A DNA stretch of 64,000 bases from Planctomycetaceae bacterium (GCA_947459185.1 CANHCU010000001.1:14463-78462); one strand, 5' to 3'; numbered from the stretch's first letter, positions 41,273 through 55,772 are shown. The notes: generated by a model from the sequence alone, not told the origin. Numbers and translations: made by a program.

Positions 41273-42445
41273 TTAGCGGGCCGCTGGCAACGCTGCCGCG
41301 TCGAGGGCCTGTTTGAGCATGCCGGGGTTTTGCCGTCCGATCCGCTCGAGTTCCTGTCGTGCAGCGGGAAGCGGGCAGGCTGCGAGATATCCGGCCACGG
41401 CGCGGCGGATGAGTGGGTCGTCGGTTCCGAGCGTGTCCCAGAGCCGGGAGACATCGGCCACCGTCTCCCAGGCCTGATACCGGGCCAGATCGACCGTGGC
41501 ATCGGCCGCCACGGCGGGGCTTGCCAGCAGGGCTGCCGTCGCGGCAATGATCCGCTCCCGCGGGATCGCCTCGGTGAGGCTTTCTCCGGCAAATCGCACC
41601 GCGGCGAGCAGATGGCGCTGATCGAGGGCCCGCGCTTCCCGGCCAAACAGGCCGCGGCGCTCGAGAGAATCGAGGCCGGCCTGCCCCTCCGCCACGAGCA
41701 CCCCCGCCAGAACTCCATCGAATCCAGCACGAAAATCGTCGGCGGGAGCCTCGACGGCCCGATGCAGGGCGTCGAGGCAGTCTCGTGCCACCGCGGGATC
41801 GTCCGTGGTGGCGGCGGCCACTCCCAGTAAGAGTCCATAGAGCCCGCGGCGGCGGGCGTCGATCCCCGGCTCGCTCACCCAGGCCCGGAGCCGGGCCGGG
41901 TCGAGCCCGCTCGCTGCAGCACGCACGGCGGTGAACGGCGACAGGCCAAACTCCGTGAACGCATCGGCGGCGATCGCCGGATCGGGGTGCTCCAATCGGG
42001 CGGCGAACCATCGCAGCCGCTCGGCCGCCGGGAGCGTGATCGCCGGTGCGGCCGTCACATAGCCCAGAAGCGATTCGTCGGCCGCGACCGCCGACCAGGA
42101 GCGACCATTTCCCGCGGCCTGTGGGCCTGCCGCCATGACCGTGCCAAAGAGCACGGCTGTTCCGGCGATCGGCCCGGCCACGCGGGCCGGCACGGTCTCG
42201 CCGGCGACGGCGGCGTGGGCCGTGTCGCGGAGCACTTGGTCGATGCGAAATCGCTGTGCGAGAAAACCGCTCGCATCTGGCGCTGCCGTACCCTCCGCTT
42301 CAGCGACCGCCACGGCGTCCGCCGCGTCGCGCCGCTGCGCGAGCGACTGCCCAACCGTGCCGCAGAACGGGCATGCCGATGCCAGCGGCACGGCCAGCAC
42401 GATCACGAGGAACGCGGCCAGGATGGCCGAGCCCGACGTGAACAC
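41273..42445 (-). CDS. exported CPFC-motif helical-repeat protein (paralogue of 46739..48409)
   Basis: GTG 42445 gives (M)FTSGSAILAAFLVIVLAVPLASACPFCG. It aligns with the 46739 protein along its length (RLEHPDPAIAADAFTEFG / HLEDPDETLARDAYDEFA; DLARYQAW / DLARWQDW; YLAACPLP / YLRACPLP). The upstream part of the ORF reads through repeat units. Confidence 0.55.
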   Translation of the reverse strand: MFTSGSAILAAFLVIVLAVPLASACPFCGTVGQSLAQRRDAADAVAVAEAEGTAAPDASGFLAQRFRIDQVLRDTAHAAVAGETVPARVAGPIAGTAVLFGTVMAAGPQAAGNGRSWSAVAADESLLGYVTAAPAITLPAAERLRWFAARLEHPDPAIAADAFTEFGLSPFTAVRAAASGLDPARLRAWVSEPGIDARRRGLYGLLLGVAAATTDDPAVARDCLDALHRAVEAPADDFRAGFDGVLAGVLVAEGQAGLDSLERRGLFGREARALDQRHLLAAVRFAGESLTEAIPRERIIAATAALLASPAVAADATVDLARYQAWETVADVSRLWDTLGTDDPLIRRAVAGYLAACPLPAARQELERIGRQNPGMLKQALDAAALPAAR

Positions 42446-42564: not shown

Positions 42565-43233
42565 TCACTCGGAACCCCAGCCCGCGCGTTCCCGCTGCAT
42601 CCGCGCCCGCCAGTAGGGAACGGTGCACAAGATCAGCTTGCCCGTGCCCTTGTAGACGTAGGCCCGCTTCTGACCCGAGAGCCAGTAGCTGAGGAGGTTC
42701 TTCGCAGGCCGTTTGATCTGCATCGAAATGCCTTGTGTCCGCGCAACCACGAATGGTCCATCGGTGACGAGCGTGTCGTCTTTGAGTTCCATCTCCTGCA
42801 CCGGGCCATCGACCGTAAGCACGACCTGCCCTTCCCCCTTGAGGGCGGTCTTGTACCACAACAGTCCCTCACCGGCCCAGAAGGACGTGAACATCGGTTC
42901 GCGATGGATCGAGAGTTTGACCTCGCCGTCGCTTGCCCAGAAGCACCGGGTGTCGAGCACCCAGCGTTCTCCGGCCGCCAGCTTCATGATGTGGTAGCCG
43001 CCGAGCGTGGAATCGAGATAGACGGTCCCGGTCCCGCTGTAGCGGGGCCGCACCACCGACTCGTCGGAAAAGAGCGACACCCACCAGGCCTTCAGTGTGG
43101 GCAGCGGCACATCCATCGTGATCGCGCCGAGCATGTGGTTGAGCGCACCCCGCTCTGCCCGCATGCGGTCGTCGTCGAGATCGACCTTCACCCACCGCAT
43201 TCCCTCGGAGCTTTCGACCTTAAATCTCGCCAT
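42565..43233 (-). CDS. AIM24 family (DUF124) protein
   Basis: 222 aa. GALNHMLGAITMD...GTGTVYLDS...GERWVLDTRCFWASDGEV...GEGLLWYKTALKGEGQVVL is the AIM24/TIGR00266 pattern. Confidence 0.8.
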   Translation of the reverse strand: MARFKVESSEGMRWVKVDLDDDRMRAERGALNHMLGAITMDVPLPTLKAWWVSLFSDESVVRPRYSGTGTVYLDSTLGGYHIMKLAAGERWVLDTRCFWASDGEVKLSIHREPMFTSFWAGEGLLWYKTALKGEGQVVLTVDGPVQEMELKDDTLVTDGPFVVARTQGISMQIKRPAKNLLSYWLSGQKRAYVYKGTGKLILCTVPYWRARMQRERAGWGSE

Positions 43234-44545
43234 CGATCAAGACCTCCGGGCCGCGAGTGATGCCCCCCTTCGTCCAGTCACAGCTCCAGCCCGGGAAGGC
43301 GATCTGCGGATAGGGGTCGGGCTCGATGGGGGCGTCCGACTGGTGCACGATGTCAAACTGGTGGTCGGCGCGGATGCGTCCCACGCGAAAATAGCGGGTG
43401 CAGTGCTGCGTCTTGGGGTCGAGCCGCACGGTGCCACCCGGACCGGCGAACGACAGGCCGTCGCAGAAGGCCTGCCGCACCGCCTCCGTTTCAAACGTCC
43501 CCGCCTTCTCCACGGCCGCCTTCCAGAGATGCACGAGACACCAGTCGGGCTCCATGGGATCGCCCGTGACGCGGTCGAAGCCAAACTCACGGCGGAACCC
43601 GGCGATCCATTCCCGGTTGGCCGCGGTGTCGAGGCTCTGGAAATAGGACGAGATGGCGTAGTGTCCCTGGACCTGATGCGGCAGGAGGCTCCGCAGTTCG
43701 TCCTCGGCGATGCTCGTCGAGACCACAGGCAGTTTCGTGGGGTCGATCTTGGCGTCGGCCAGCGCCTGAAAGAGGCCGAGATTGCTGTCGCCGTTGACCG
43801 TGTTGAGCACACAGTCGGCGTTGGAGAAAAGGATCTGTTGGACTGCCGCCGAGAAATCCTGATGTCCGAGCGGCAGATACACCTCGCCGGCGGCCCGAAG
43901 ATCCTTGGCGGCGAGGTACTTCTTGGCGATGAAGTTGGCGGTTCTTGGAAACACGTAGTCGGAGCCGAGCAGGAAGATCTTCTTCTTCGACCCGCCGTCC
44001 GGGCCTGTGAGCCAGTCGATCGCCGGCATGATCTGCTGATTCGGAACGCTGCCTCCGTAGACACAATACTTCGAAGACTCGTTGCCCTCGTACTGCACGG
44101 AGTACAACAGCAGCTTCTTGTATTGCTCAAATATCGGCAGCACAGCCTTACGGCTCGTGCTCGTCCAACAGCCGAACACTGCGACGACTCCAGCCTCGAG
44201 CAACTGCGTTGCCCGCTTGACGAACAGGTCGGGTCGCGAACGCGGGTCCGGCGCCTTCGCTTCGAGTTGGTAGCCCAACAGGCCGCCCGAGCCGTTGATC
44301 TGCTCGATGGCATGCAGTTCGATGTCGCGAAGGGATGTCGCGCTGATCGCCATCGTGCCGGTCTGCGAGTGGAGAAGGCCGACCGGCACGGGTTTTCCGC
44401 GGGAGCGGATGCCGAGCGAGCATCCCACGAAGAGCGAGGGGGCAAGGGCACGGGCGGCTGCGAGTGTGGCTGCCGTGCCGTGGGCCAGAGCCCGCCGCCG
44501 TGAGACGGCGCCGTGACGCGGAGCCATCGGATGTTCAGGGATCAT
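43220..44545 (-). CDS. periplasmic urea/short-amide-binding-type (UrtA/AmiC-like, type I SBP) lipoprotein
   Basis: ATG 44545 gives a twin-Arg plus lipobox signal (SRRRALAHGTAATLAAARALAPSLFVGC). VGLLHSQTGTMAISATS...AVFGCWTSTSRKAVLP...LLGSDYVFPR resembles UrtA/AmiC. No permease or ATPase genes adjoin it. Confidence 0.75.
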   Translation of the reverse strand: MIPEHPMAPRHGAVSRRRALAHGTAATLAAARALAPSLFVGCSLGIRSRGKPVPVGLLHSQTGTMAISATSLRDIELHAIEQINGSGGLLGYQLEAKAPDPRSRPDLFVKRATQLLEAGVVAVFGCWTSTSRKAVLPIFEQYKKLLLYSVQYEGNESSKYCVYGGSVPNQQIMPAIDWLTGPDGGSKKKIFLLGSDYVFPRTANFIAKKYLAAKDLRAAGEVYLPLGHQDFSAAVQQILFSNADCVLNTVNGDSNLGLFQALADAKIDPTKLPVVSTSIAEDELRSLLPHQVQGHYAISSYFQSLDTAANREWIAGFRREFGFDRVTGDPMEPDWCLVHLWKAAVEKAGTFETEAVRQAFCDGLSFAGPGGTVRLDPKTQHCTRYFRVGRIRADHQFDIVHQSDAPIEPDPYPQIAFPGWSCDWTKGGITRGPEVLIDGEI

Positions 44546-44547
44546 CG

Positions 44548-45342
44548 TCAATCCTCGTTCATGCGGCGGTAGAGTGTCTCGAAGGCCTCCGGCGTGATGC
44601 TCACGTCGCCCCGGAACGGCTGGTTCATGTCGATGATGAGATACATCATCGTGCCGAGATAGCTGGCGAGGATGCCGCCGAGCACGAGGTGCGCGATGAA
44701 TTTCATGTCGAACATCCAGCACATCACGATGGTGAGAATCGACCCAAGGACCATCACGTACCACATCGACGCCGGCAGCGCCGACTTCACCGAAAACAGC
44801 CGCATTCGCCGGCACTCGAGGAAGTGATTGAACTGACGCAGGGCCTCGGCGTGCAGAATTTCCTGTGATGGCGTGCGGGGCTCGAAGTCGAGAAGCCTGT
44901 CGTTGAACGCCTCGGCGCGGATCGTCCCCTCCTCCGGGATGATGCCCCGCTGTTGGAGCGGCCAGGCATACTTGATGACGTAACGCGTGTAGTCCCGCAG
45001 CAGCCATCGCAGGTTTTGCCCATGGGGCTCCGGATAGCGGGAAACGTCTTCATAGAGTGCCGAGAGGGCGGCGGCCTCGCGGGTGACGTTCGATCCGGCC
45101 TCGGAGACGTTCTGGTAGGCGGTGACGGCGATGAGGCCGAGCAACAGGCCGTAGAAGACGCAGAAGCAGGAAAGGATGTAGCCGACGATGTCGTTGGCGG
45201 CCGGCGTGTTCTTGACGAACTGCCTGAGGATCGGCCGGATGAAGATCAATCCGAGCCAGTAGAAGCCGACGAACAACGCGATCGACAGCAGTGCCAGTCT
45301 GGCCGGTGGGATGTCGTAGATCCAGAAGAAGTCGGTGTCCAT
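44548..45342 (-). CDS. DUF4239 family membrane protein
   Basis: ATG 45342 (MDTDFFWIYDIP...). Two N-terminal and two C-terminal TM helices flank a soluble helical region, as in DUF4239. The stop abuts the SBP start. Confidence 0.6.
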   Translation of the reverse strand: MDTDFFWIYDIPPARLALLSIALFVGFYWLGLIFIRPILRQFVKNTPAANDIVGYILSCFCVFYGLLLGLIAVTAYQNVSEAGSNVTREAAALSALYEDVSRYPEPHGQNLRWLLRDYTRYVIKYAWPLQQRGIIPEEGTIRAEAFNDRLLDFEPRTPSQEILHAEALRQFNHFLECRRMRLFSVKSALPASMWYVMVLGSILTIVMCWMFDMKFIAHLVLGGILASYLGTMMYLIIDMNQPFRGDVSITPEAFETLYRRMNED

Positions 45343-45441
45343 GATCGATCGCCCCCCAGCGAAGGCGACAAAAGAATACGGGTTCGATGACGGTGGACGC
45401 TCTCGGGAGCACCTCCCCGCGATCGTACCAACGACCACGAA

Positions 45442-46041
45442 TCACTGCACATCTTCGCCATCTAGGGCGTAGATCGCCAGGTGCCGGCCGTCCGGACCCC
45501 GCAGTTCCTCCACTCGGAAGGTGCCGGTGACGGCCACCGGCCGGATCGAAAAAGAGGCTGTTTTCCCAGGTTTCATCCGGACCAAGACGCAGTCGTGGAG
45601 CAGCGCGCCGGGCCCAAAACAGCACTCCATGTTGTCCCGGACCAGCACGAACTGGGTCAGGCCGGTCTGCTGGAAACTCGGCAGGATGTAGCCGCGGATG
45701 CGGATCGGGGTCGTCTCCAGGGCCGTCACCCGGGCGGGCAGCAGGTCGCGGGAGAACGGGTCCCCCTTCTTGAGGTCGAGCTTGATGTCGTCGAACGAGA
45801 TGTCGCGAGGGGTGGCCGGGCGGCCGGTCAGGGGCGTGGGAGCGGCCGGGGCCGGCGGCACCGACTGGGTCGCGACGGCGGGCCGGTCGGTAAGCGCAAC
45901 GGCAGGCGCGGGCTGAGGCTCCACCTCAGCTGGCGCCCCGCACCCGACCAGGCAGCAGGCCATCACGACGTGGCAGAACCGTTTATGGCACCGCTTATGA
46001 CAGTGCGCGTGCAGAACCGCGAGGCTATCTCGCAAAGGCAT
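45442..46041 (-). CDS. DUF3299 domain lipoprotein
   Basis: ATG 46041 gives MPLRDSLAVLHAHCHKRCHKRFCHVVMACCLVGC (lipobox). The C-terminal IRIRGYILPSFQQTGLTQFVLVRDNMECCFGPG is DUF3299-like. The longer ORF to 46140 would overlap the upstream gene by 116 nt. Confidence 0.65.
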   Translation of the reverse strand: MPLRDSLAVLHAHCHKRCHKRFCHVVMACCLVGCGAPAEVEPQPAPAVALTDRPAVATQSVPPAPAAPTPLTGRPATPRDISFDDIKLDLKKGDPFSRDLLPARVTALETTPIRIRGYILPSFQQTGLTQFVLVRDNMECCFGPGALLHDCVLVRMKPGKTASFSIRPVAVTGTFRVEELRGPDGRHLAIYALDGEDVQ

Positions 46042-46726
46042 CCTCGAGGTGATAGAGCACGCCGCCATCCATGCCGGGCGCGGCCATGGGACGGATGGCA
46101 AACCTGCCGGCGATCTTGGTGAGCCGGGACGAAAAATCAATCCCCTTGGGATGGCCGGGGTCTTTCAACTGCACGAGCACCCGATCGGTGATCTTGGGAT
46201 TGCCGCCGAAGCAGCAGTCGCCCTGATCGCGCACGAGCAGGAACTGCGTGATGCCGGTCTGCTGCTTGCCCGGATACATGTATCCCTTGAGCAGCACGTT
46301 GCGACCGTCCATCGTGCGGGCGGTGTCGGGCACCGCATCGGTCGGATCACCGGGCAACGGCTGGAGCAGGCCGTAGTTGAGACGTTCGTAGCCCTCCGGG
46401 AGTTCGGCTGCATACGCCCGCGACAGGGTGACGAGGCCGGCGATGAGCGAGACCGCCGATACCACGATCGCGCCGACGGCCAGCGGCCGTCCGGTGAACT
46501 CCTCGGGCCGCTGCGTGATCGTGCGGTAGGCCAGCGTGCCGAGCACCACGCCCAGGATCGGCACGACGACCAGCGACCAGTCGAGAAACGCCAGCGGCGA
46601 CAGGGCGGCTGCGACCGCAGCGGCAATCGCCGTGCCGGCGACGGCGCGGTAGCGGCCCTCCACCTCCTGACCATCGGCATGGTCGAGCGGTTCCTGTCCG
46701 GCGGTGTCGAAGAGACCTGCTGGCAT
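46025..46726 (-). CDS. membrane-anchored (3 TM) DUF3299 domain protein
   Basis: Three N-terminal TM helices are followed by VLLKGYMYPGKQQTGITQFLLVRDQGDCCFGGN, paralogous to the 45442 gene. Confidence 0.7.
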   Translation of the reverse strand: MPAGLFDTAGQEPLDHADGQEVEGRYRAVAGTAIAAAVAAALSPLAFLDWSLVVVPILGVVLGTLAYRTITQRPEEFTGRPLAVGAIVVSAVSLIAGLVTLSRAYAAELPEGYERLNYGLLQPLPGDPTDAVPDTARTMDGRNVLLKGYMYPGKQQTGITQFLLVRDQGDCCFGGNPKITDRVLVQLKDPGHPKGIDFSSRLTKIAGRFAIRPMAAPGMDGGVLYHLEDAFAR

Positions 46727-46738
46727 GGGCTGTGTCTG

Positions 46739-48409
46739 TTAGCGGTCGGAAGGCCCGGCTCCCGCAGCCCGCAGTCTGGACCACGAGACGACTGCGATCA
46801 GAAGCAGGACCGCGGCTCCGAGCAGCCATTTCGCAATGTCGGAGCCGCCATTGGCTGGTGGGCGAGCAGCGGCCGGCGGGAGGGTGGGGCTGGCTGCCTG
46901 CTGCTTCGAAGGGTCGATCCCGGGAGCGTTGTCGGTGGCCTCTTCGTCGGCGAGCACCGCCGGTATGCGGGACGCGATGGCCGCTTCGGCTTCGGTGGCC
47001 GGCGGGGCTGGCATGGACGGAGCCGCTCCAGTGGGGGCAGCAGCCGACGCCCGGGCCATGCTGGGATCGCCCGGATCGCCGTCGTCGTCGTTCGCACCGG
47101 TCTGGCCACTGCCTGTCGCTGTCGGAGCGGACGTGGTGTCGCCGGGCGTGGCCCCCACCGCTCCTGCAAAGGCCGCCAGCGTGGCGGCGCGGCGGACCGC
47201 CTCGGGATCGATCTTCTCAAGGGTGGCTATTGCCGCTGCCGCCTGCGGCAGCGGGCAGGCCCGCAGATAGTTCACGATCGGTTCGCGGACGAAGATGTTG
47301 TCGGCCTCGGCCTTCTCGAAGAGTTCCACGAGCCGGTCGATCACCGACCAGTCCTGCCAGCGGGCGAGATCGGCGATCACCAGATCGGCAAGCTTCGGCT
47401 CCGCCAGAAGCAGCCGCAGCGACGCGAGCACGCGTTCCCGCGGCACGCTCTGCGACTCCTCACCGAGAAATCGCAGCGCCATCACCGCGGCATAGGTTTC
47501 AGTGAAGGGAATCTCGCGGCCGCGACGGTTCAGGAAGAGTTCATCGATCAGGTCGAGCCCGTCGGGCCCCTTGAGCGTGACATAACACGCGATCAGAGCA
47601 TCCAGACCACTGCGAACCTCCGCCTTCTCCGGGCCGAGGTCCTGATTGGCGAGGATCGCACCAATGCGTTCGGCGTCGGCCTTGGTGCCGCAGACGCCGA
47701 GCATGGTGGCATAGAGCCGGCGGCGGTTGGCCTGCACCTTGGGGTTCTCGATCCATCCGAGCAGTTGCGTCGGATCCATCCGGTCAGCCAGACCGCGAAC
47801 GTCGGCGTAGGGAGCGACGGCAAACTCGTCATAGGCATCGCGGGCCAGCGTCTCGTCGGGGTCTTCGAGGTGCTGTTGAAAGAAGGCCAGGCGATCGGGC
47901 CCCTTCTCGGGAAGCGTGGAAAGTTTTCGGAGGTATTGGACGGCCCGCTCGCTGACCGGGATCGGACTCGACCAGACGATCTTCGGAGGCTCGATGCCCA
48001 TGAGCAGGAAGAGCGTGCCCACCGGCTTCTCCTCCAGCAGGATCGTTTCGATCGGCGTGCCGTCAGCACCCGCGTGCCCGGCCTCGGCGATCAGGTCGCC
48101 CCCCTTGATCGCCTCGACGACGACGAATTTGCCCTTGGGCAGCGGCCCCTCGGCACGCGGTGACAAGGCCCCCGCCGGCGGCGGCTCCACGAGCCGGACG
48201 ATCGCGGCTGCCTGGCTCTGCGCGATCTCCTGGGCGAACGTGAGCGACACGGCCGAACAGAATGGGCAGGCCTGCGCCTGCTGTGCCGGTCCGATGAGGA
48301 GCCCGATCCCCAGCAGGGCCACGATCCAGTGTCGGAAGAGCATGTTTCGCATGAGCCTCATTCTAGCGGCAAACATGCCGCCAACGCACGGCGTCAGGAC
48401 GACAGCCAT
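46739..48409 (-). CDS. exported CPFC-motif helical-repeat protein with Pro/Ala-rich linker and C-terminal TM anchor
   Basis: Signal ...HWIVALLGIGLLIGPAQQAQA then CPFC. A helical-repeat-like body follows, with a C-terminal WLLGAAVLLLIAVVSW anchor. The start is ambiguous (ATGs at 48409, 48376, 48361, 48352, 48343). The antisense ORF 46049..48163 is rejected. Confidence 0.65.
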   Translation of the reverse strand: MAVVLTPCVGGMFAARMRLMRNMLFRHWIVALLGIGLLIGPAQQAQACPFCSAVSLTFAQEIAQSQAAAIVRLVEPPPAGALSPRAEGPLPKGKFVVVEAIKGGDLIAEAGHAGADGTPIETILLEEKPVGTLFLLMGIEPPKIVWSSPIPVSERAVQYLRKLSTLPEKGPDRLAFFQQHLEDPDETLARDAYDEFAVAPYADVRGLADRMDPTQLLGWIENPKVQANRRRLYATMLGVCGTKADAERIGAILANQDLGPEKAEVRSGLDALIACYVTLKGPDGLDLIDELFLNRRGREIPFTETYAAVMALRFLGEESQSVPRERVLASLRLLLAEPKLADLVIADLARWQDWSVIDRLVELFEKAEADNIFVREPIVNYLRACPLPQAAAAIATLEKIDPEAVRRAATLAAFAGAVGATPGDTTSAPTATGSGQTGANDDDGDPGDPSMARASAAAPTGAAPSMPAPPATEAEAAIASRIPAVLADEEATDNAPGIDPSKQQAASPTLPPAAARPPANGGSDIAKWLLGAAVLLLIAVVSWSRLRAAGAGPSDR

Positions 48410-49740
48410 TTGGCGACGTCGGTGCGGTAGGCGGTCAGGGCGGGAATCAGGGCCGCCAGGATGGCCAGCACCACCAGGAACGGCACCAGGAGCAGTTCCG
48501 CCCCCGGGGCCGCCGAGAAGATGCTCGCGGAGACGCCGGCGTTGGTCGTGATCAGCGGGGCGATCGCCCCCACGAGCAGGTGCCCAAGCACCCAGCCGGC
48601 GAGCCCGCCGCCGACAGCCAGTAGCACCGCCTCGATCAGCACGACGGCGAGCACGTGCGACCGCCGGGCCCCGAGCGCCCGCATGATGGCGACGTCGCGG
48701 CTGCGTTCCAGCGACGAGCCCACCATGCTCACGAGGATGCCGATCGCCGAAACGATCACGACGAGCGTCGTCACCAGAAGCAGGAGCAGTTCGAGCGGCC
48801 GCACAAACAGGTCGAGCAGCTGGCGGATCTCGGCGATCGGCAGGGCGGCCTGCCCGTCGCGGCCCTCGTTGATCGCGGTCCGCAGGCCCATCGCCATCAG
48901 CTCCGGCGGCAAGCCCGGCAGAGAGGCTGTATCGAGCAAAAGCGCGGTCACCTCCCGCTGCGCGAATGGCAGCGGCACCGGCCCCTTGGTGCCGTGGTCA
49001 TGTGAGCCATCGGCATCCTTTCCACCTGCTGCGTTCGGGCTTCCGTTCTCCGCTCCCTCCACCGGCTTCGCGTGTCCGTCCTGGAGATAAAACCCCTCCA
49101 TGTTGACGAACACACCTCGATCGACGGGCGTGTCGGTGCGGGCCAGGATGCCGGTCACCGTGAACGGATCATGCACCTTGCCATCGTCGGCACCATGCGT
49201 GGGGGCGAATGGATCACCCGGCTTGAGACCGAGCTTGGCGGCCACCGTCGCCCCCAGCACGCCGCCGAAGAATTCGTCATCCCGAAAGTTCCGGCCGGCG
49301 GAAAAAGCGAAGGGCCGGCCGTCGCCGATCGTGAGCCGGTCGAAGTAGGCCGTGTTGGTGCCGATCACGCGAAACCCGCGGTAGTAGTCCCCCATGCAGA
49401 TCGGCACGGCGGTCTTCGTGCTGGCGGCGAATGTGCCGTCCACGCCGTCGGGCCGTTCGGCCGCGGGCAGGAACTGCTGGTAGAAGTCCCAGGAGATGTT
49501 TTCGATCGGCTTGCTGATGAGATAGACGCTGTTGAGCACCAGTTGGAGCGGGCTCCCCTTCGCGCCGACGATCATGTTGTAGCCCAGGCCGGAGCCAGAC
49601 TCGAACGCCTGCTTCACGATGCCGCCGGTCACGAGCGTGGCCACGACGAGCGCCACGCCGAGTGCCAGGGAGAGGGCGGTGAGCAGGCTGGTGAGCAGCC
49701 GCTGCCGGATGTTGCGCCAGGCGATGCCGAGAAGGGTCAT
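48394..49740 (-). CDS. ABC transporter permease, FtsX/MacB-like (4 TM with large periplasmic domain)
   Basis: One TM helix, a ~250-aa periplasmic domain and a C-terminal FtsX-type 3-TM bundle (MRALGARRSHVLAVVLIEA). The ATG overlaps the ATPase stop (ATGA). Confidence 0.85.
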   Translation of the reverse strand: MTLLGIAWRNIRQRLLTSLLTALSLALGVALVVATLVTGGIVKQAFESGSGLGYNMIVGAKGSPLQLVLNSVYLISKPIENISWDFYQQFLPAAERPDGVDGTFAASTKTAVPICMGDYYRGFRVIGTNTAYFDRLTIGDGRPFAFSAGRNFRDDEFFGGVLGATVAAKLGLKPGDPFAPTHGADDGKVHDPFTVTGILARTDTPVDRGVFVNMEGFYLQDGHAKPVEGAENGSPNAAGGKDADGSHDHGTKGPVPLPFAQREVTALLLDTASLPGLPPELMAMGLRTAINEGRDGQAALPIAEIRQLLDLFVRPLELLLLLVTTLVVIVSAIGILVSMVGSSLERSRDVAIMRALGARRSHVLAVVLIEAVLLAVGGGLAGWVLGHLLVGAIAPLITTNAGVSASIFSAAPGAELLLVPFLVVLAILAALIPALTAYRTDVAKWLSS

Positions 49741-50426
49741 GAGCCATGCCCCGTGGCTGCGCGGTTGAAGTCTTCGAGGCGGATGCGACGAGGAAACTGC
49801 CCGGCGACGTCGGCGGCATGCGTCACGACCAGGAGCGCCACCCCCTGCTCGGTGCAGGTGGTCCGCAGGAGGTCGATCACCTGCTGCTGGTGGGCGGGAT
49901 CGATGCTGGCGGTGGGTTCGTCGGCGAGCACCGCCCGGGGCCGGTTGGCGAGTGCCCGGGCCACGGCTACCCGCTGCTGCTGCCCGACGCTCAGTTCGGC
50001 CGGCTTGTGGTCGAGCCTGTGGCCAAGCCCCACGGCGTCGAGGAGCCGCATCGCCCGCCCGCGGTCGGGGCGGCCCGAGCCGAACGTCATCGCCACGAGC
50101 ACGTTCTCGATCGCTGTGAACCCCGGGAGCAGGTTGAACTGTTGAAAGACGAGGCCGAGCTTGTCGGCCCGCACGCGGTCGCGGCGGGCCTCGTCGAGCC
50201 GGGCGATGTCCTTGCCGTCGATGATCACCCGGCCGGCGTCGGGCCGCATGATCCCGGAGATCACATTGAGCAGCGTTGACTTCCCGGAGCCGCTGCGGCC
50301 CTCCAGGGCGCAGTGTTCGTCCGCGGCGAGCTGGAACGAGTCGATGTCGAGGATGCTCACCTGCTCGCCGCCGGGCATCGTGAACGACTTGCGGACGCCG
50401 ATGAGTTCGAGAACGGGTGTGGCCAT
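49737..50426 (-). CDS. ABC transporter ATP-binding protein (MacB/LolD-like)
   Basis: Walker A GRSGSGKSTLLN, signature LSVGQQQRVAVARAL, Walker B VLADEPT. Confidence 0.9.
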   Translation of the reverse strand: MATPVLELIGVRKSFTMPGGEQVSILDIDSFQLAADEHCALEGRSGSGKSTLLNVISGIMRPDAGRVIIDGKDIARLDEARRDRVRADKLGLVFQQFNLLPGFTAIENVLVAMTFGSGRPDRGRAMRLLDAVGLGHRLDHKPAELSVGQQQRVAVARALANRPRAVLADEPTASIDPAHQQQVIDLLRTTCTEQGVALLVVTHAADVAGQFPRRIRLEDFNRAATGHGS

Positions 50427-50602
50427 GGACGGTATCGTATCCGGTGGGGGCGGTCGGTGGTCAAAAACGGGCGTTTTCGTCCGCCGATTGAGCGGCTGGA
50501 GCGCCGCGGTGTATATTCCGCCGCCCCCCTTGGAGCAGCCGCCCGACCGCAGTGTCGCGGGGCGGCAGCGCTCGTTCGACGTCCCGCCTCAGGAGATTCG
50601 CC

Positions 50603-52827: not shown

Positions 52828-53430
52828 TCAGCCGACTGCCTTGTCGGTCGGCATGCGGTCGATCACCTCGTCGATCAGCTTGTATTCGAGCGCCTCCTGC
52901 GCCGACATGAAGCGATCGCGATCCGTGTCCTGCTCGATCTTTTCCAGGGGATGCCCCGTGTGCTTGAGCAGGATCGCGTTGAGCTTGTGCTTGATGTTCT
53001 TGAACTCCTTGGCATGGATCATGATCTCCTCTGCCGTGCCCTCCATGCCCGCCAGCGGCTGGTGGATCATGATCCGCGCGTTGGGCAGCGCTCGACGCTT
53101 CCCCTGCGCGCCGGCGGTGAGCAGCACCGCGCCCATCGACGCGCACTGGCCGATGCAGTAGGTGGCGACGTCGCAGGTCACGAACTGCATCGTGTCGTAG
53201 ATGGCAAGGCCGGCCGTGACGCTGCCGCCAGGAGAGTTGATGTAGAGGTGAATGTCTGACTTCGGGTCATCGGACTGGAGAAAAAGCAACTGGGCAACGA
53301 TGGCATTGGCCACCTCGTCGTTGACCTGCGAGCCGAGAAAGACGATGCGATCCTTCAGCAAGCGGCTGTAGATGTCCATCGCCCGCTCTTCGCGGCCACT
53401 CTTTTCGATGACGAACGGGATCAGCGGCAT
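52828..53430 (-). CDS. clpP: ATP-dependent Clp protease proteolytic subunit
   Basis: [33 protein letters not shown]. Ser (GQCASMGA), His (MIHQP) and Asp (DTDRDRF) triad. Confidence 0.95.
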
Positions 53431-53512: not shown

Positions 53513-54169
53513 CTAGTCCTTGCTGTCGTCTTCCGCCGCTACCGGCGGCTTGGTGAGCACGTCATCGACCAAGCCATACTCCTTGGCCTCGGTGGCTGTG
53601 AGATAGCGGTCGCGATCAGTATCTTTGGCGATGCGGTCGATGGGCTGGCCGGTGTGCTGGGCCAGGATCTCATTGAGGATCGCGCGAGTCTTGATGATCT
53701 CGTCGGCCTGGATTTCGATGTCACTCACCTGCCCGCCGACCTGGCCGTAGGGCTGGTGGATCATCACCTTCGCGTGGGGCAGGGCGAATCGTTTCCCCTT
53801 CGCTCCGCCGGCGAGCAGAACGGCGCCGCCGCTGGCCGCGAGCCCCACGCAGTAGGTTGCGACCTGGCAGGAGAGAATCTGCATCGTGTCGTAGATCGCC
53901 ATCGTGGCCGTCACGCTGCCACCGGGCGAGTTGATGTAGAAGTGAATGTCCTTGCGGCGGTTTTCGCTCTGCAGGTAGAGCAGTTTCATCACCAGTTCGT
54001 TGGCGTTGCCGTCGTAGATCTCCCCCTGCAACAGGATGATCCTGTTCTCCAGCAGGAGGTCGCCCAGCGTCATCTGCCGCTGCCGTTGGTAGTCGCGTGA
54101 GGCGCTCGAGGCCTGCGGACTGGAGGCCTCCGGAACACTGGCCCGCGGAACGAAGGAACGATTCAACAT
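53513..54169 (-). CDS. clpP: ATP-dependent Clp protease proteolytic subunit, second paralogue with N-terminal extension
   Basis: ATG 54169. [31 protein letters not shown]. The triad is retained ([20 protein letters not shown]). Confidence 0.9.
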
Positions 54170-54275
54170 GTCAGGTCTCGGTTGGGCTGTGAAAATCGGC
54201 GGTGGTTGGTGACACGATGCCGGGGTGACACGGTGTTCGACGGCAGAGGGTGGATGCAGGCATCCGGCCCGCAAC

Positions 54276-55772
54276 TCACGACCGCCGCGGGCTGCCGGCA
54301 TCCGGCTGGGTGGCGGTCGGGATTTCCTCCTCGCCGACGACGGAGCCGCAGACCGCATGGTCCACCGCCTCGGCATCGCGTTTCTGGAACTCGAACGGGG
54401 TGTCGGTGAACTTCGCGTGGGACGTGATCAGGTCGATGGTCTTCCGCTCGATGATCTGGTTGCGGAGCACGTCCATCAACCCACGCTTCTCGAGGTTGGC
54501 CCGCACGCGACGCGGCGACTCGCCCGACTGAGCGGCAATGGCACGAATCTCCTCGTCGTAGTCGGCCGCGGCATCGGCGATCGACTGGTCTTCGGCGATC
54601 CGCTCCAGGATGAAGTGCTCCTTGAGGGCCGCGGCCGTGCTGCCCATGACCGACTGCCGCAGTTCGTTGACGTGCCGCCGGATGGAATCGTCATCGAAGC
54701 CACTCCGCCGCAGTTCAAGAATCGACCGCTCCAGTTCCCGGAGGCTCTGGCGACGGAGCAGATCCGGGGGCAGGTCCCAGCTGGCCGAGGCCGTCAGCGC
54801 GCTCGACACCTGCTGCCGCACCTGCCGTCGGCGGTGCCATTCGAGCTGGTTTTCGAGCTGCTTTCGCACGGCCGCCCGCAGGTCATCCGGCGACTCGAAC
54901 GAGCCGATTTCATCGAGCAGTTCGGGCGTAAGCTCCGGCAGTTCGAGGTGCTTGACATCCACAACAGTCAGTTCGAGCGTGACATCCTTGCCGCGGAGCG
55001 ACTCGACGGCCGCCTCGTCCGAGACCTTGATCGTGGCGGTCACCGGCGTGCCGGTGCGGGCCTTGGCGACGAGCTTGTCAAAGCCTTCCAGTTCGGCGTC
55101 GGCAAAGGAGAGCTTCGGCCGCACGATCAACTCGAGATCGGTGGCCTCCGAGAGCAACGTGTCTCCGTCGAGAAACCGCAGGTTGGCCACGATCAGGTCA
55201 CCTGGCTTGGCCGAGCCTTCGTGGGGTACGAACCTCGCCCGTTCCCGCAGGAGGTTGGTGAGCGACTCTTCCACGTCGTCGTCCGAGATCGTGCGGGAGG
55301 GCCGCCGGATCGACAGACCCTTCCATTCGGGCAGGTCGAACTCCGGTCGCACCTCGATCTTGAACTCGAACGTCATCGGCCCATCAGCCGGCACCAAGAC
55401 CGCATTGACGTCGAGTTCGGGTTCGCTGATGGGGGAGAGTTTCTCCTGCTCCGACACCTGCGTCATGGCGTCGGCCAGCAGTTTGCTGCGGATCTGGTCG
55501 GAAAGCTCCGACTTGAAGCGGCTGCTCACGAGCCGCCGCGGGGCGCGGCCGGGCCGGAATCCGGGCAGCATCGCGGCGGGCATCATTTCGCCGATCGCAT
55601 CGTCGCGGTAGCGGTCGATGTCTTCACGCGGGATCGAAACCCGCACGCGTCGCTCGCAGGCCGAGAGTTTGTCGATGGCAACACCGAGTTTCAGGGCCAC
55701 AACGGCCGCATCGTCGCCAGCGGAATCAGGAGTTGCCAAGGCGGTCGCGGATGGATCACTGGAAGAAGACAT
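54276..55772 (-). CDS. tig: trigger factor
   Basis: 498 aa with N-terminal ribosome-binding, central PPIase-like and C-terminal arm architecture, placed directly upstream of clpP as in many bacteria. The antisense ORF 54225..55982 is rejected. Confidence 0.9.

Follow-up and report, generated by a model that had tools for sequence, protein, structure and literature searches.

A predicted Zrg/PA4063-PA4066-type ABC transporter of Pirellulales, encoded together with paired DUF3299 proteins and a family of cysteine-bearing periplasmic proteins

We analysed a stretch of 64,000 nucleotides (nt) from a Planctomycetaceae bacterium (GCA_947459185.1, CANHCU010000001.1:14463-78462; hereafter the window, with positions counted from its first letter), in which five co-directional, tightly packed genes occupy positions 45442-50426 of the minus strand. 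All five open reading frames (ORFs) were found exactly where an initial annotation, made from the sequence alone, had placed them. In order of transcription they encode an ATP-binding cassette (ABC) ATPase of 229 amino acids (aa) and of the PA4064/Zrg type (49737..50426), a MacB/FtsX-type permease of 448 aa (48394..49740), a protein called CPFC-A for its Cys-Pro-Phe-Cys tetrad (46739..48409), a DUF4190-like three-helix membrane anchor joined to a predicted periplasmic DUF3299 domain with the motif GDCCFGGN (TM-DUF3299, or gene 4; 46025..46726), and a DUF3299 lipoprotein with the lipobox LVGC and the motifs ECCFGPG and HDC (gene 5; 45442..46041). The ATG of the permease overlaps the stop codon of the ATPase, since the coordinates of the two genes share 4 nt; an overlap of 17 nt and a single gap of 12 nt are found further downstream. 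This spacing is compatible with one operon, and no convincing terminator was seen within the five genes. The accessory proteins all bear predicted export or membrane-anchor signals. The description of the locus as a five-gene unit therefore stands as far as these genes go, but most genomes have six, the one that had been missed being a paralogue of CPFC-A in the same orientation (CPFC-B, 41273..42445; 390 aa, GTG start, 28% identity, E 4e-35).

Two sets of relatives were used for comparison. A scan of one genome per species returned more than 500 relatives, the best 80 of which (72-98% identical) make up the close set; according to their record titles, these are nearly all planctomycetal metagenome-assembled genomes, many of them Pirellulales. 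The distant set comes from a profile search for relatives at 45-53% identity, from which six loci were examined in their contigs (L081-L086).

The first two genes are predicted to encode a split type VII (MacB/FtsX-fold) ABC transporter, with a cognate MacB/LolD/FtsE-type ATPase whose motifs are intact. The ATPase scored 112.8 bits against ABC_tran (Pfam), and the characteristic stretches GRSGSGKST, LSVGQQQR, LADEPT and VTH could be recognised by eye in its translation. Its top NCBIfam matches were the nucleotide-binding domains of LolD, YbbA, DevA, FtsE and MacB, all under their equivalog cut-offs, and it is 42% identical to PA4064 (E 7e-53). In L081, the ATPase gene of an otherwise intact cluster was called as two pieces of 50 and 173 aa (L081:7536-8206), which suggests a frameshift or an assembly error.

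The permease matched both MacB_PCD (PF12704; 46.8 bits, cut-off 27) and FtsX (PF02687; 57.5 bits, cut-off 25.5). A hydropathy scan gave four membrane-spanning regions (residues 19-37, 319-337, 358-397 and 416-434), the first two of which are separated by some 280 residues that make up the periplasmic domain. Homology to PA4065 extends over the full length of the protein, periplasmic domain included (32% identity over residues 1-447, E 1e-50), as does homology to a permease encoded on a Phaeobacter plasmid (34% identity, E 7e-52). Solved MacB, LolF, LolE and FtsX matched only the C-terminal membrane region, at about residues 300-445, with E-values of 6e-11 or worse.

In a Pseudomonas aeruginosa record and on the Phaeobacter plasmid, both from the plasmid collection, genes for a DUF2796 protein, an ABC ATPase, an ABC permease and a DUF3299 protein follow each other in that order and without an adaptor, with a Fur-family regulator upstream in Phaeobacter. 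The window's cluster has in common with both the split MacB-fold transporter, the order ATPase-permease-DUF3299 and the lack of a membrane-fusion protein. Because the permease (over its full length), the ATPase and the DUF3299 proteins all have homologues there, in the same order and with no adaptor, we assign the ABC core and DUF3299, on sequence grounds, to the known Zrg/PA4063-PA4066 class and not to a new type of machine. By published description, the ZrgABCDE system of Vibrio cholerae and V. parahaemolyticus likewise contains a MacB-like permease with four helices, an ATPase and a DUF3299 protein, ZrgE (PMC9817125, PMC9820375). The initial annotation had proposed an uncharacterised envelope machine; this holds for the cluster as a whole, which is both conserved and uncharacterised, but its core appears to be a member of a class already described.

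The absence of a membrane-fusion partner, also pointed out in that annotation, was confirmed: we found no HlyD-type gene among the window genes examined with Pfam, nor in the Pfam-annotated neighbourhoods of the six distant loci. Its premise that MacB-type systems normally work with an HlyD-type adaptor was too broad, however, given that PA4065 and its Phaeobacter homologue sit in adaptor-less clusters; as the whole class is adaptor-less, the missing HlyD gene is expected and not anomalous. The resemblance to MacAB-TolC is accordingly partial. The two have the MacB_PCD and FtsX domains and a MacB/LolD-type ATPase in common, but in Pirellulales the ATPase is a separate polypeptide, only the C-terminal membrane region of the permease resembles solved MacB and there is neither a MacA/HlyD adaptor nor a TolC-like gene.

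The cluster also departs from its proteobacterial relatives, first of all in having no DUF2796 protein, the counterpart of PA4063 and of the His-rich zinc binder ZrgA; ZrgD (DUF2607) has no counterpart either. When PA4063 and its DUF2796 counterpart from Phaeobacter were used as tblastn queries, neither the window nor L081-L086 gave a match, the sole exception being a compositional match to a His-rich loop of the permease. Indeed, the His-rich stretch lies within the permease itself in several Pirellulales, in contrast to its location in ZrgA. A periplasmic insert rich in His, Asp and Glu is present between the sequences NMEGF and PLP..REVT in four of the five distant permeases (L081:8203-9825, L082:8442-9950, L083:6506-7864 and L085:6245-7909), and exceeds 100 residues in L081, L082 and L085. 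In the window, the corresponding loop (about residues 219-256) is short and contains three His, with GKDADGSHDHG as a remnant. The inserts resemble the His-rich loops of PA4063 and ZrgA and, where there is no DUF2796, are part of the subunit that is left, which suggests a link to metals.

A second difference concerns DUF3299, of which PA4063-PA4066 has a single, soluble copy, whereas the Pirellulales cluster has two, both predicted to be membrane-attached. On the basis of profile and sequence matches, both are divergent members of PF11736 related to PA4066, whose structure (PDB 4hsp) is OB-like and has been described as being of unknown function (PMC8561739). Gene 5 scored 21.5 bits against PF11736 as a whole protein and 22.9 bits as a domain alone (cut-off 22), and it matched 4hsp both as a single sequence (E 4.6e-4) and as a profile of planctomycete domains (E 5.5e-5). 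A lipobox-like L-x-G-C occurs in most of the 26 N-termini of gene 5 orthologues that were inspected. Gene 4 begins with three hydrophobic helices that score 33.8 bits against DUF4190, just below the cut-off of 35. Its C-terminal domain reached only 15.8 bits against PF11736 (21.8 bits for the L081 orthologue), and is assigned to DUF3299 because it is paralogous to gene 5 (37% identity, E 4e-18). Overall, 13 of 14 planctomycete DUF3299 domains matched PF11736. A lead towards DUF1980_C, matched by one of the 14 domains (E 0.0016), was dropped after a literature search gave nothing useful.

Both DUF3299 proteins carry a vicinal Cys motif, NMECCFGPG in gene 5 and QGDCCFGGN in gene 4, and the conservation of these motifs was borne out in the close loci, with an ECCFG-type motif in 65 of 67 gene 5 orthologues and a GDCCFGG-type motif in 73 of 75 orthologues of gene 4. 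The few that lack it are probably for the most part truncated ORFs. The statement in the initial annotation that proteobacterial DUF3299 proteins have a stretch rich in Cys, His and Pro at this position was correct, PA4066 having GACIHVPPPP there. When the two are aligned, the first Cys is shared, Phe replaces His and there is no run of Pro, so that Cys-Ile-His-Val-Pro-Pro-Pro-Pro in PA4066 corresponds to Cys-Cys-Phe-Gly in Pirellulales, and the Cys-x-His/Pro-rich motif that follows the central beta-strand in PF11736 is absent. The lipoprotein-type DUF3299 has a further conserved Cys, in the motif (H/Y)DC.

The third difference is the addition of the two CPFC proteins, predicted to consist of an OB-like domain and a solenoid. 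They belong to a large, previously uncharacterised family for which every source name that we saw was planctomycetal, and which comprises 2,231 clusters at 50% identity (E<=1e-3), or 647 at E<=1e-30. CPFC-A has a hydrophobic N-terminal segment, interpreted as a signal peptide, the sequence ACPFC, a weak match to HEAT_2, a Pro/Ala-rich linker of about 110 aa and a hydrophobic C-terminal anchor (residues 525-543). Its true start is probably a later ATG, at about 48343-48376, because orthologues start some 25-30 residues ahead of the Cys. CPFC-B has a signal peptide, ACPFC and a second motif, ACPLP, and lacks the linker and anchor.

Of about 130 representatives of the 50% identity clusters whose N-terminus is complete, 115 have the tetrad; among the 80 close loci, CPFC was found in 79 and ACPFC in 77. 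Among 239 representatives, Ala directly precedes the first Cys in 199 and position -3 is occupied by Ala, Val or Ser in 205; position -2 varies, with the first Cys at a median position of 29. This AxA-type pattern fits a signal-peptidase I site and not a lipobox, and the CPFC tetrad is therefore the predicted N-terminus of the mature protein. The third Cys, which belongs to ACPLP and lies in the solenoid, is kept in 201 of the 239 representatives, and the C-terminal anchor in 173 of 201.

An AlphaFold2 model of CPFC-A built from 99 sequences (predicted local distance difference test, pLDDT, 92.7; predicted template modelling score 0.88) consists of a low-confidence N-terminal coil containing CPFC, a short helix with a five-stranded barrel, and an all-helical repeat at residues 110-375. 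The model had no match in the PDB at E<=1e-3 in a Foldseek search, and its helical part resembles generic ARM/HEAT solenoids. Neither the model nor the search was adaptor-like, in agreement with the earlier view that CPFC-A is not an ordinary membrane-fusion protein. Modelled alone (pLDDT 89.4), the N-terminal domain found its best Foldseek matches in NTR modules, namely agrin NtA (template modelling, TM, score 0.53-0.56), followed by TIMP-1, TIMP-2 and C3 C345C, and then in generic OB folds, all with E-values of 3.6e-3 or worse. The shared features are a predicted five-stranded OB barrel with flanking helices (TM about 0.55) and a Cys at the predicted mature N-terminus. The identity is 8-14%, however, the NTR disulfide pattern is absent since only two Cys are conserved in the CPFC domain, and the CPFC proteins are bacterial, predicted to be periplasmic and fused to an ARM/HEAT solenoid; the likeness is one of fold only.

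Two other relationships were considered for this domain and rejected. A cryptic DUF3299 domain was given a probability of 0.45% by hhalign, and 4hsp was not among the Foldseek matches listed. The glutaredoxin-like character assigned to CPFC by the initial annotation was not upheld: the profile match to glutaredoxin-2 is sub-threshold (E 0.11), no thioredoxin fold appears among the 50 Foldseek matches listed, and the CxxC lies in a low-confidence coil ahead of the OB/NTR-like barrel, instead of in helix 1 after strand 1 as in glutaredoxins and thioredoxins.

The association between these genes is conserved. The order ATPase, permease, CPFC-A, TM-DUF3299 and lipoprotein DUF3299 is that of the 80 close loci, where it is usually followed by genes for a bestrophin-like protein, a Peripla_BP_5 protein and AIM24, and then by CPFC-B. 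The close set alone says little about linkage, since the gap gene stays adjacent as well. Rearrangements occur within it: L019, L032 and L057 have the ABC pair inverted across gap, and the pair is separated from the other genes by about 7 kb in L048, L061 and L078 and by about 3 kb in L066. CPFC-A, TM-DUF3299 and the second DUF3299 gene are never separated in the close loci, and TM-DUF3299 adjoins CPFC-A wherever a locus, close or distant, is long enough to show it. In the distant loci the flanks differ (SmpB, lipoate synthesis), and ABC_tran, MacB_PCD/FtsX, CPFC-A and DUF4190/DUF3299 nevertheless recur in all five loci with the upstream side visible. A second DUF3299 gene is found in five of the six and an adjacent CPFC-B in four (L081, L082, L083 and L086), while the minimal set, in L084, consists of the ATPase, the permease, CPFC-A and TM-DUF3299. 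Both linkage and cysteine conservation persist in sequences that have diverged by up to about 50%. The conserved genes of the cluster include none for an outer-membrane channel.

In the window, three minus-strand genes (42565-45438) separate the five-gene cluster from CPFC-B: the bestrophin-like gene (44548-45438), the Peripla_BP_5 binding protein (43220 to about 44540) and AIM24 (42565-43233). None of the three occurs at this position in L045, L046, L062, L063, L067 or any of the distant loci, and they therefore look like a lineage-specific insertion. CPFC-B lies directly 3' of the second DUF3299 gene in the same five close loci, as it does in L081, L082, L083 and L086. Judged by gene order, CPFC-B is a sixth member of the conserved cluster, set apart by the three inserted genes in the window's lineage.

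The occurrence of the cluster outside Planctomycetota was not established, the names seen being Pirellulales, Planctomycetia and Planctomycetota, bar a few titles that are likely to be mislabelled. Five records of metagenome-assembled genomes are titled Candidatus Kuenenia stuttgartiensis (L001, L016, L041, L073 and L079) and have the locus at up to 98% protein identity; these deposited titles look taxonomically wrong, most other loci of similar identity being titled Pirellulales, Planctomycetia or Planctomycetota and the window having a G+C content of 64-69%.

The sole conserved element identified in the 125-bp region upstream of the ATPase gene (13 related loci) is a promoter-like site on the plus strand, TTGAGC-18-TATATT (50488-50517), which is oriented towards the divergent gap gene; we recognised no promoter that would serve the ABC operon. 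L081 and L083 have in common, ahead of the ATPase gene, a stretch of about 28 nt, GCGATAACCT(A/T)(A/T)TA(C/G)GATGTAACGC (within L081:7351-7700 and L083:5596-5845), which could be a regulatory site; it contains no obvious Fur- or Zur-type palindrome and we leave it uninterpreted. Elsewhere in the window, two tandem minus-strand ORFs (52828-53430 and 53513-54376) resemble ClpP protease subunits when their translations are judged by eye. The second has an N-terminal extension of about 100 residues that may reflect only the mechanical choice of ORF start.

What might such a cluster do? The homologous operons of proteobacteria are repressed by zinc via Zur and affect the handling of zinc or cobalt (PMC9817125, PMC9820375, PMC11481552). 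Zur regulation has been described for the Zrg/PA4063-PA4066 class (PMC9817125, PMC11481552), including the Zrg operon of Vibrio, in which the role of ZrgE is unknown (PMC9817125, PMC9820375). Deletion of PA4064/65 or of the Zrg ATPase-permease pair changes the metal or metallophore content of the cell (PMC11481552, PMC9820375). We favour, with a probability of roughly 0.55, the reading that the cluster is the Pirellulales version of these envelope systems and a periplasmic metal-handling machine. A metal or metal-chelate cargo would be in keeping with the Zur-regulated metal phenotypes of the homologues, the His-rich loops of the permease and the pairing of CxxC with Cys-Cys; the near-invariance of the Cys motifs also counts towards the link with metals. 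In terms of predicted components, the His-rich zinc-binding DUF2796 protein is replaced by two Cys-bearing periplasmic CPFC proteins, and DUF3299 is duplicated with a vicinal Cys-Cys. Of the thiol or metal chemistry proposed in the initial annotation, the link to metals gains independent support; the glutaredoxin-like character is not supported.

In the mechanism that we envisage, ATP hydrolysis would drive movements of the periplasmic domain of the permease, and these would load or unload a thiophilic cargo in the form of a metal ion or of a metal chelate. Through ligand exchange, this cargo would move between the CxxC proteins and the Cys-Cys domains of DUF3299, by analogy with mercury transport, where MerP (CxxC) passes Hg to the Cys-Cys of MerT. 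That pair, too, combines a CxxC periplasmic protein with a membrane-tethered Cys-Cys protein, but its folds and its transporter are different, and the analogy is mechanistic only. Transport could run in either direction, as for the proteobacterial systems, where the matter is disputed.

Several observations weigh against a metal-handling machine. The function of the homologues is itself contested, with zinc import proposed in V. cholerae (PMC9820375) and export of pyochelin-cobalt in P. aeruginosa (PMC11481552). PA4066 showed no evident zinc binding (PMC11481552), and deletion of zrgE on its own had no phenotype (PMC9820375). In contrast to PA4063-PA4066, no Zur box or Zur/Fur-type metal regulator was found beside the planctomycete clusters, the six distant loci included, although we know of no Zur motif for planctomycetes. 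The permease loop is short in the window's lineage, with between one and five His, and the L084 permease has no His-rich loop. The CPFC segment was modelled at low confidence (pLDDT about 57-61). Lastly, the conserved periplasmic Cys could form structural disulfides or be redox-active, instead of being metal ligands.

The alternative that fares best, although we think it unlikely, starts from the proposal of the initial annotation that the two DUF3299 proteins and the CPFC proteins would take the place of the membrane-fusion adaptor, bridging the permease to the outer membrane in order to expel a non-metal substrate such as a toxin, an antibiotic, a lipid or a peptide. There is no HlyD-type gene nearby, an export function has been argued for PA4064/65 (PMC11481552), and the layout, with one DUF3299 copy tethered by three helices and the other a lipoprotein, and one CPFC protein on a linker of about 110 aa and the other untethered, would suit a periplasm-spanning relay. 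Neither fold resembles an adaptor domain, however, and no outer-membrane channel gene accompanies the cluster. The ABC pair can be inverted (three close loci) or displaced by about 7 kb from the CPFC and DUF3299 genes (three others), and the His-rich loops and invariant Cys motifs favour metal chemistry over a bulky organic cargo.

Slightly less probable again is a thiol-redox module, in which the CPFC proteins would be periplasmic thiol-disulfide oxidoreductases keeping the vicinal Cys of DUF3299 reduced or oxidised, and the transporter would supply or remove a redox-active small molecule. CP[FY]C is the classical active-site tetrad of glutaredoxins, vicinal Cys-Cys can form strained redox-active disulfides, and the weak glutaredoxin-2 match of the N-terminal domain begins exactly at the CxxC. 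This match is not significant, however, and the domain is predicted to be an OB/NTR-like barrel with the CxxC at its extreme N-terminus, where no thioredoxin-fold beta-strand precedes it; nor does the cluster contain a partner, such as DsbD or CcdA, that would supply reductant.

We also regard as improbable an FtsEX-like signalling device that moves no substrate, but changes the conformation or activity of its periplasmic partners through mechanotransmission. The type VII ABC proteins do have members that transport nothing, FtsEX being one, FtsX itself was a weak match, and ARM/HEAT solenoids are typical scaffolds for protein-protein interactions. On the other hand, no hydrolase or protease is conserved in the cluster, and the altered metal or metallophore content of the PA4064/65 and Zrg deletion strains (PMC11481552, PMC9820375) counts against the idea. 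The remaining idea, that the CPFC proteins are periplasmic inhibitors acting like TIMPs, whose N-terminal Cys chelates the catalytic zinc of a metalloprotease, draws on the NTR-type structural matches and on the predicted signal-peptidase I site that leaves Cys as residue 1, but is very improbable given the weak Foldseek E-values, the lack of the six-Cys NTR disulfide pattern and of a linked protease gene, and the fact that the invariant partners are the DUF3299 proteins and the ABC transporter.

Returning to the metal-handling reading, a more specific and tentative version, which we consider possible but well short of probable, is that the CPFC proteins constitute a new class of metallochaperones in the periplasm. 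Their N-terminal Cys hook (a free amine and two thiolates), placed on an NTR-like OB barrel, would capture a soft metal and hand it to the vicinal Cys of DUF3299; the subunit that really loads the substrate in Zrg-type MacB transporters would then be DUF3299. If this is true, the Cys-Cys and Cys-x-His variants of DUF3299, and the shift of the His-rich loop out of DUF2796 into the permease, would show how a disputed class of transporters handles its metal.

In Vibrio and Pseudomonas, zinc starvation strongly induces the Zrg/PA4063-PA4066 systems, whose mechanism is unsettled, both as to import or export and as to the role of DUF3299. The Pirellulales cluster offers comparative clues to these questions which, unproven as they are, provide concrete proteins and residues for testing. 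The DUF3299 motif changes from Cys-x-His to Cys-Cys and is near-invariant within the lineage, as a ligand site might be, and the His-rich element can reside in the permease rather than in a separate DUF2796 protein. The CPFC family, for its part, can now be assigned to Zrg-type machinery.

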